A program made the position numbers and the translations under genes. Positions 25,763 to 26,279 of a DNA stretch of 47,189 nt are shown one piece after another. Under the pieces are notes generated by a model that saw only the letters and a program-made list of their open reading frames with translations, searched no databases and was not told where the DNA came from. Within the stretch, counting starts at the first letter, position 1, and every line of letters starts with the position of its first letter. This DNA comes from a virus (taxonomy: Duplodnaviria > Heunggongvirae > Uroviricota > Caudoviricetes). The stretch is taken from IMG/VR virus record IMGVR_UViG_646311924_000019; one strand, given 5' to 3'.

Positions 25763-26185
25763 TTATATACGTCCTTTAAGATAAGTCAGTCCTGGATGAA
25801 ACCAGTAAGCCGGCACTTTTTTAAAGGGCGGGTTGTCAAACTCACGAAGAAGAGCCTCCCGCACAACTGCATCCTTGTCCGCACCACTGGCCAGCGCTTC
25901 AATCTCAGCAGCTATCTGCAGATATCCCATGCAACGACCAATGCACTTCATCAGCCCCTGCTTTTTATTGTTCTTCAGGTAATCAATGGCAAATTCAATG
26001 AGCACCTCACTATGCTGGTGCGATGGCGGTGTTACTTTTCCATTTTCTGAGATGGTTATTTTCCCAGCATCACCGGATACAACAAAGGATGGCCGGTTAC
26101 ACTCCCATTCCAGCTCACTGAAATTATCATTATGAATACTGAAACACTCTGAGAGATTTCTGCTCATCGCGGCGTTTTTTTTCAT
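25763..26185 (-). CDS. Hypothetical protein inserted between holin and endolysin
   Basis: 140-aa ORF with ATG start, no TM segment, no family recognised. Confidence 0.55.
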   Translation of the reverse strand: MKKNAAMSRNLSECFSIHNDNFSELEWECNRPSFVVSGDAGKITISENGKVTPPSHQHSEVLIEFAIDYLKNNKKQGLMKCIGRCMGYLQIAAEIEALASGADKDAVVREALLREFDNPPFKKVPAYWFHPGLTYLKGRI

Positions 26186-26279
26186 CTTCAGAAGGCATCA
26201 GCGTCGACAGTTTTTTATTCAGTTCAGCAATTTCATTTTCCAGACGACTGAAGCGCTGATTCATTTCTTCATGGTTCAT
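26133..26279 (-). CDS. Small coiled-coil ORF (49 aa) immediately after the holin stop
   Basis: ATG 4 nt after the S stop; MNHEEMNQRFSRLENEIAELNKKLSTL...; below the 60-aa track cutoff; overlaps the start of the 140-aa ORF in another frame. Confidence 0.3.

Follow-up and report, generated by a model that had tools for sequence, protein, structure and literature searches.

Lysis cassettes with and without a gene between S and R

In lambda and P21, the holin gene S and the endolysin gene R are adjacent. The earlier note on this DNA took adjacency as the normal arrangement. That holds for these two phages and fails in many E. coli lambdoid prophages. The Qin prophage has the order essQ-ydfR-rrrQ, and 607 of 5,426 complete E. 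coli genomes have the gene studied here, X, in its undeleted form.

YdfR is a DUF1327 protein. It was recovered in two-hybrid screens, and its binding to the catalytic N-terminal half of RNase E was validated by copurification (PMC13232886). It also copurified with RNA (PMC13232886). DUF1327 is the only part of the family described below for which there is an experimental lead, namely, RNase E binding.

The lysis region of the window

The window is the whole stretch of Caudoviricetes DNA that was analyzed, 47,189 nt in length. The analysis covered its minus-strand lysis region, and all coordinates are those of the window unless a contig is named. S, the ORFs in the slot between S and R (the X slot), R, and Rz are all on the minus strand. 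The cassette genes are as follows.

26283-26498, minus strand: holin S of the P21 class II type, 71 aa; PF04971 (P21 holin S), E 8.5e-33; phrog_20 and phrog_9876, holin.
25187-25720, minus strand: endolysin R, phage lysozyme, 177 aa; PF00959, E 5e-24; phrog_7, endolysin.
24422-24913, minus strand: Rz i-spanin; PF03245, E 1.5e-46.
24484-24669, minus strand: Rz1 lipoprotein ORF, embedded in Rz; lipobox-like LVVSAC.

The cassette is of the P21 pinholin/SAR-endolysin type, since S matches PF04971 and R matches PF00959 and has a predicted SAR segment. The N terminus of R is MNTKIKYGLSAAVLALIAAGAPAP, which is Gly/Ala-rich, hydrophobic, and SAR-like. R also has E-8-D-5-T spacing. Both features were read from the translation. 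The genes 5' of S encode DUF826, DUF1378, and a 645-aa SASA/NanS-p-type esterase.

Several other features were observed around the cassette. The R-Rz gap contains a 72-aa ORF (24891-25109, minus strand; phrog_6632), which overlaps the longest Rz start; in related prophages, this gap is occupied by an ant antirepressor gene instead. A PerC-family transcriptional activator gene (23643-23957, minus strand; PF06069, E 5e-44) is located 3' of the lysis cassette, as it is in other EHEC/EPEC prophages. The window contains a complete IS66-family element (30140-32556, plus strand) with three ORFs (HTH_Tnp_1, TnpB_IS66, and DDE_Tnp_IS66). It lies in the late region between a TerB-like gene (29621-30052, minus strand) and a tRNA cluster, which is roughly the position of the stx genes in Stx phages. 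The cluster contains three phage tRNA genes (32762-33013, minus strand) just 3' of an AraC-type HTH gene (33042-33755, minus strand). ARAGORN called them Arg-tct, Arg-tcg, and Met-cat. In a related prophage, the tRNA with a CAT anticodon at the corresponding site is annotated by RefSeq as tRNA-Ile.

The two ORFs in the X slot

The earlier note described a 49-aa ORF starting 4 nt after the S stop and an overlapping 140-aa ORF, and both were found exactly where it placed them. The features of the slot are as follows.

25763-26279, minus strand: whole probable pseudogene, one accessory gene with an intact form of 185 aa; from the alignment with the strain 155 allele and the PGAP pseudo-CDS.
26130-26279, minus strand: 49-aa ORF, probable 5' fragment; a 40-aa coiled-coil N-terminal module, then 9 out-of-frame residues and a stop.
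25763-26185, minus strand: 140-aa ORF, probable 3' fragment; residues 1 to 6 are a wrong frame of the coiled-coil region, and residues 7 to 140 correspond to the C-terminal portion of the intact protein and contain the complete conserved domain.
26175-26182, minus strand: A8 homopolymer, just 5' of the deletion junction.
26160-26168, minus strand: deletion junction, the sole remaining copy of GATGAGCAG; in the intact allele, 32 bp separate two copies.

The S stop is a TAG at 26283-26285. It is followed by a GTG (26280-26282) and an ATG (26277-26279). The 49-aa ORF begins at this ATG, and the alternative GTG start at 26282 would give 50 aa. The 140-aa ORF overlaps it by 56 nt in the +1 frame.

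The 49-aa product matched phrog_15975 (E 1.4e-38) and also positions 117 to 152 of phrog_1085, a profile of 296 positions, in the PHROG scan. In the domain scans it gave only subthreshold coiled-coil noise. The 140-aa product matched positions 160 to 296 of phrog_1085 (E 1.8e-90), and E. coli proteins matched it at up to E 1e-84. Because both ORFs have strong homologues, neither is a chance ORF.

The 49-aa ORF is preceded by the Shine-Dalgarno sequence GGGGAG, with a pairing energy of -8.1 kcal/mol against the anti-Shine-Dalgarno sequence. No Shine-Dalgarno sequence was found before ATG1 or ATG7 of the 140-aa ORF (+0.2 and +0.4 kcal/mol). The genuine R gene likewise has none (+0.6 kcal/mol). 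The missing site is therefore weak evidence against translation of the 140-aa ORF.

The family phrog_15975 has 49 positions. The window ORF matches its whole length, and the intact protein matches positions 1 to 40 only. Judged from these matches, phrog_15975 appears to consist of this frameshift fragment, annotated as a gene in phage genomes that have been deposited.

A 41-bp deletion that probably broke one gene

The reading that we favor, with a probability of about 0.9, is that a deletion inactivated a single accessory gene and left its 5' and 3' portions as the two ORFs, so that the locus is a pseudogene. RefSeq already flags it as one. PGAP annotated DNA 100% identical to the window with a single CDS ("hypothetical protein, frameshifted, pseudo") whose boundaries correspond to 25763-26279. 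Two such records were compared, from O111:NM FWSEC0005 and from strain 2014C-3061.

We aligned the gene and its flanks with those of the closest relative, E. coli strain 155. The alignment has one 41-bp gap and 2 substitutions over 561 aligned bases. Strain 155 encodes an uninterrupted 185-aa ORF (WP_001015164.1) between the same holin and lysozyme. Its sequence runs CGCCGC-GATGAGCAG-(32 bp)-GATGAGCAG-AAATCTC. The 41 bp missing from the window are one copy of the 9-bp direct repeat GATGAGCAG and the 32 bp between the copies. Loss of one repeat copy with the spacer is the signature of slipped-strand or microhomology-mediated deletion, and such an event between the two copies would account for the lost bases.

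Since 41 is not a multiple of three, the 3' part lies in the +1 frame. After the deletion, the upstream frame continues for 9 codons to a stop. An ATG in the downstream frame, within the former coiled-coil region, gives the apparent 140-aa ORF. Residues 1 to 40 of the 49-aa ORF are identical to the intact protein. The intact protein covers positions 117 to 296 of phrog_1085 in one stretch (E 7e-112), whereas the window ORFs cover 117 to 152 and 160 to 296 separately. The 140-aa ORF thus has the C-terminal-domain match (about 160 to 296), and no single uninterrupted frame runs from the linker through the C-terminal domain in the window gene.

The deletion also removes 14 conserved residues (FAAFDDYCRKV and its neighbors). 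In an alignment of 20 family members, the deleted residues sit in the invariant columns D38, E39, Q40, A42, F44, C48, and K50. The earlier note had counted two extra genes between S and R. The 41-bp deletion that splits one 185-aa gene and the single frameshifted pseudogene called by PGAP speak against this count.

Distribution and decay of the locus

The deletion junction was present in 71 of the 5,426 complete E. coli genomes, as judged with a 60-nt probe centered on it. Among the matches listed, the carriers are overwhelmingly O111:H8, O111:NM, or O111:H2, and all are 98 to 100% identical. The window matches O111 chromosomes with 100% identity over 6.7 kb. Because the 71 copies are nearly identical and mostly from O111, the deletion appears to have happened once, recently, in a single prophage lineage. 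By this sequence comparison, the deletion allele looks like a recent pseudogene, mainly of the O111:H8/NM lineage.

The 607 genomes with the undeleted segment were found with a 71-nt probe. They include the same O111 strains, at a second locus. Strain 2014C-3061 contains a second lambdoid prophage that encodes an intact 185-aa paralogue (WP_001015158.1) between its own S and R. In NZ_CP027548.1, the intact paralogue lies at 1625-2182 of contig L013. The layout of this second prophage is DUF1378-DUF826-S-X-R, which is almost identical to that of the window. The part of the earlier note that described extra coding sequence inside the lysis cassette is borne out, and this sequence is conserved in related prophages.

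In strain AR_0372 (L014, 1588-2515), the X slot contains an incomplete "YdfR family protein" and about 590 unannotated bases. Many non-STEC genomes have a truncated "YdfR family protein" pseudogene in the slot, and about 590 unannotated bases after it keep the segment that the window has lost. Here the same locus has decayed independently. The X gene looks dispensable to the host and frequently lost.

The intact gene family

The intact gene belongs to phrog_1085, a narrow, mosaic family of enterobacterial lambdoid prophages. It formed 91 clusters in 5.8 billion clustered proteins, and the source names among the matches listed are all E. coli or Shigella. A profile search of 1.84 billion representatives gave only 37 hits, none of which provided a link to a named family. 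Family proteins have an N-terminal module that varies (DUF1327/YdfR or coiled coil) and a C-terminal domain that is conserved and about 115 aa long. The C-terminal domain has the motif LGRCMGxLQVAAEIEA…DFDNPPFK..P..W..PG..YL.

Distant members are 266 to 314 aa long and have the full architecture, with C-terminal domains that are 30 to 40% identical. Their order is a DUF1327-like N-terminal domain, a coiled-coil or variable linker, and the C-terminal domain. The likeness to DUF1327 is seen in P0095 (PF07041, E 0.004) and in positions 1 to 79 of phrog_1085, which match YdfR. In E. coli, the family proteins are mosaics, with N-terminal and middle modules that have been swapped or lost. Single-ORF homologues occupy the X slot in Stx2_12E129 (213 aa, with the same MNHEEMNQRFSRLENEIAELNKKLS start), Stx2_95 (329 aa), and phage 86 (gp05, 268 aa, annotated "YdfR family protein"). 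Short members with little beyond the C-terminal domain are P0103 (125 aa), P0113 (142 aa), and P0026 (129 aa, in the S-R slot).

DUF1327/YdfR had been suggested as a candidate family for the window ORFs, and the suggestion is right for part of the family. In the long homologues from this slot, DUF1327 is joined to the C-terminal domain that the window gene also has. PF07041 was not matched at E<=0.1 by either window ORF or by the 213-aa Stx2_12E129 homologue, which has the window-type coiled-coil architecture. The positive controls, Stx2_95 and phage 86 gp05, scored about 152 bits against a gathering score of 25 bits. BLASTP gave no alignment between the intact 185-aa protein and K-12 YdfR. 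The window gene does lie where YdfR lies, between an essQ-type holin and an rrrQ-type lysozyme, but position in the slot alone does not imply DUF1327/YdfR membership. The RNase E finding concerns DUF1327, a module absent here, and so it is not transferable to the C-terminal domain.

The homology and structure search proposed in the earlier note led to phrog_1085 and to no fold match. The ORFs and homologue proteins were scanned against Pfam, NCBIfam, and PADLOC, and the intact 185-aa allele was scanned against NCBIfam and PADLOC. The C-terminal domain matched nothing in these three collections. Neither the intact protein nor the long homologues matched a PADLOC-DB defense model at E<=0.1, and the same was true of the partner gene described below. 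A profile search of PDB sequences gave nothing below E 0.06 for the C-terminal domain, and Foldseek found no match to its model in PDB and BFVD at E<=0.001. The family sequences show neither a signal peptide nor a transmembrane segment. The literature search found nothing on the C-terminal domain or the S-R insert; DUF1327 came up in a single genomics paper and YdfR in a single paper on the RNase E interactome.

The C-terminal domain was modeled with AlphaFold2 from a diverse alignment (mean pLDDT 80.8, pTM 0.72). The predicted fold has three short strands and four helices. Residues 26 to 140 of the 140-aa ORF are mostly above a pLDDT of 86, and residues 1 to 25 are predicted to be disordered. 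A model of the 185-aa protein P0002, which is about 98% identical to the strain 155 allele, was built from a shallow alignment of E. coli sequences only. Its pLDDT was 53.7, and it was discarded.

Genomic context of distant relatives

In three distant contigs, the homologue is not located between S and R. It lies between the Q antiterminator gene (with hicAB) and the holin gene or just upstream of a P21-type holin gene. The homologue is upstream of the holin in L008, L010/L011 (gene at 5001), and L009 (gene at 134-943). A DUF4406 gene overlaps the start of the homologue by 4 nt in L007 and L008. The placement upstream of the holin points to a late-operon accessory gene rather than a fixed S-R component.

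The earlier note suggested a lysis-timing modulator, and nothing was found that supports it. Distant relatives place the gene upstream of the holin, beside Q and HicAB, the gene is absent from classical cassettes, and it has repeatedly decayed. The idea was dropped.

A convergent gene for a 104- to 111-aa protein (phrog_1853) lies directly after the family gene in phage 86, Stx2_12E129, and two distant contigs. The proteins are 45 to 50% identical. The copies are as follows.

L001, 2649-2963, plus strand: phrog_1853 partner.
L003, 2649-2963, plus strand: phrog_1853 partner.
L010, 5807-6124, minus strand: phrog_1853 partner.
L007, 2378-2713, minus strand: phrog_1853 partner.

The partner had no Pfam, NCBIfam, or PADLOC match. 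The window, Stx2_95, and strain 155 have no copy of it. Its recurrence suggests that the family gene and phrog_1853 form a conserved two-gene module.

Fate of the fragments and alternative readings

If one gene was broken as described, the deletion would have shifted the frame and removed the 14 conserved residues in one step. It would have left a well-initiated 49-aa coiled-coil stub and an out-of-frame 3' part that reads as a 140-aa ORF by a chance ATG. Given its strong ribosome-binding site and close coupling to S, the 49-aa ORF is probably translated into the stub, which is probably inert. The C-terminal domain would not be made in meaningful amounts from the 140-aa frame, and lysis would proceed through S, R, and Rz/Rz1, unaffected by the pseudogene.

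The intact protein would be made late, from the Q-dependent transcript, and would not be part of the holin-endolysin-spanin machinery. We infer with low confidence that it is a nonessential, late-expressed cytoplasmic accessory protein whose exchangeable modules bind a partner from the host or the phage. The grounds are the lack of a signal or transmembrane segment, the relatives located between Q and the holin, the YdfR-RNase E interaction, and the frequent decay. These amount to genomic context and one interaction study of a domain that is missing from the window gene.

Gene fission would leave two functional products, a 49-aa coiled-coil microprotein coupled to S and a 134- to 140-aa C-terminal domain protein with an internal start. 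In favor are the complete C-terminal domain, which is predicted to fold alone (pLDDT >86 for residues 26 to 140), the near-minimal members (P0103, P0113, and P0026), and the strong ribosome-binding site of the 49-aa ORF. Neither ATG of the 140-aa ORF has such a site, however, and the upstream ORF stops 56 nt downstream of ATG1, which makes termination-reinitiation coupling unlikely. The restriction of the allele to 71 nearly identical copies suggests one recent event, and PGAP calls the stretch a pseudogene. P0026 was discounted as proof of a viable stand-alone C-terminal domain. The holin of its prophage is also split, and P0026 is thus probably another decay product. We regard fission as unlikely.

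The counterpoint to a dead gene is that the 140-aa ORF keeps an entire, confidently folded domain in the AlphaFold2 model, and some translation of it is conceivable. The C-terminal domain might still be made in O111 lysogens, from an internal start or from A7-slipped transcripts. The family as a whole would then be a late module that acts on a host factor, for example, the RNA-decay machinery, to which DUF1327 is linked by its RNase E binding, with the convergent 104-aa partner as its regulator or antidote. This would make the deletion allele a natural separation-of-function variant instead of a dead gene. We think it improbable, to about the same degree as fission.

Recoding is less probable still. 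It would take place at A8, where transcriptional slippage or ribosomal frameshifting would rejoin the frames into a 171-aa fusion without the deleted segment. Runs of at least eight A residues are known slippage sites for E. coli RNA polymerase. In silico, the loss of one A or the gain of two gave an uninterrupted ORF from the coiled coil through the C-terminal domain. The same A8 is in frame in the intact strain 155 and Stx2_95 alleles, however, and slippage there would destroy the protein. Stx2_12E129 lacks A8 and has GCAAACAAA. A8 thus does not qualify as a conserved recoding signal. Each full-length homologue inspected has a single frame, with no conserved two-frame arrangement at a slippery site, and a rejoined product would still miss the 14 conserved residues.

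A sequencing or assembly artifact is refuted: homopolymer frameshifts are common in long-read assemblies, and one of two assemblies of strain 2013C-3277 (H120 versus H112) has a 1-nt length difference here, but the loss of 41 bp is clean, has a 9-bp repeat as its boundary rather than a homopolymer, and is identical in 71 complete genomes from many laboratories.

A gene broken by deletion thus remains our preferred reading. The window feature itself matters little, as it is a recent inactivating deletion, probably of a dispensable prophage gene with an intact copy elsewhere in the same genomes. It does carry a caution: two ORFs that overlap and each have genuine homologues may be what is left of a single broken gene. 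The parent family is restricted to lambdoid prophages of enterobacteria. In Stx-type phages, its gene belongs to the late operon for toxin and lysis, and its C-terminal domain has no recognizable fold relative.

Comparison with known systems

(a) Strain 155 allele. WP_001015164.1 (the O111 paralogue is WP_001015158.1) shares the class II holin-lysozyme position, the coiled coil, and the C-terminal domain with the window gene. The window lacks 41 bp of this allele, its frame is broken, and 14 residues are gone.

(b) Phage 86 gp05 and the Stx2_95 protein. Both are encoded in the same S-X-R slot, and their C-terminal domains are about 90% identical to that of the window gene. Stx2_95 also shares the segment around the deletion. 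Both proteins start with DUF1327 (PF07041, E about 5e-45), whereas the window gene has the coiled coil there.

(c) Qin YdfR. The 103-aa DUF1327 protein of E. coli K-12 occupies an equivalent slot. It and the DUF1327 domain at the N terminus of the Stx2_95 protein (329 aa) are homologues (47% identity, E 4e-20). YdfR and the window gene correspond to different, nonoverlapping modules of one composite protein, and YdfR has no detectable similarity even to the intact form.

(d) Canonical P21/lambda cassette. The cassette consists of S, R, and Rz/Rz1. The window likewise encodes the holin, endolysin, and spanin, with each gene uninterrupted and in the expected order. It differs in having an additional nonlysis gene, here a probable pseudogene, between S and R.
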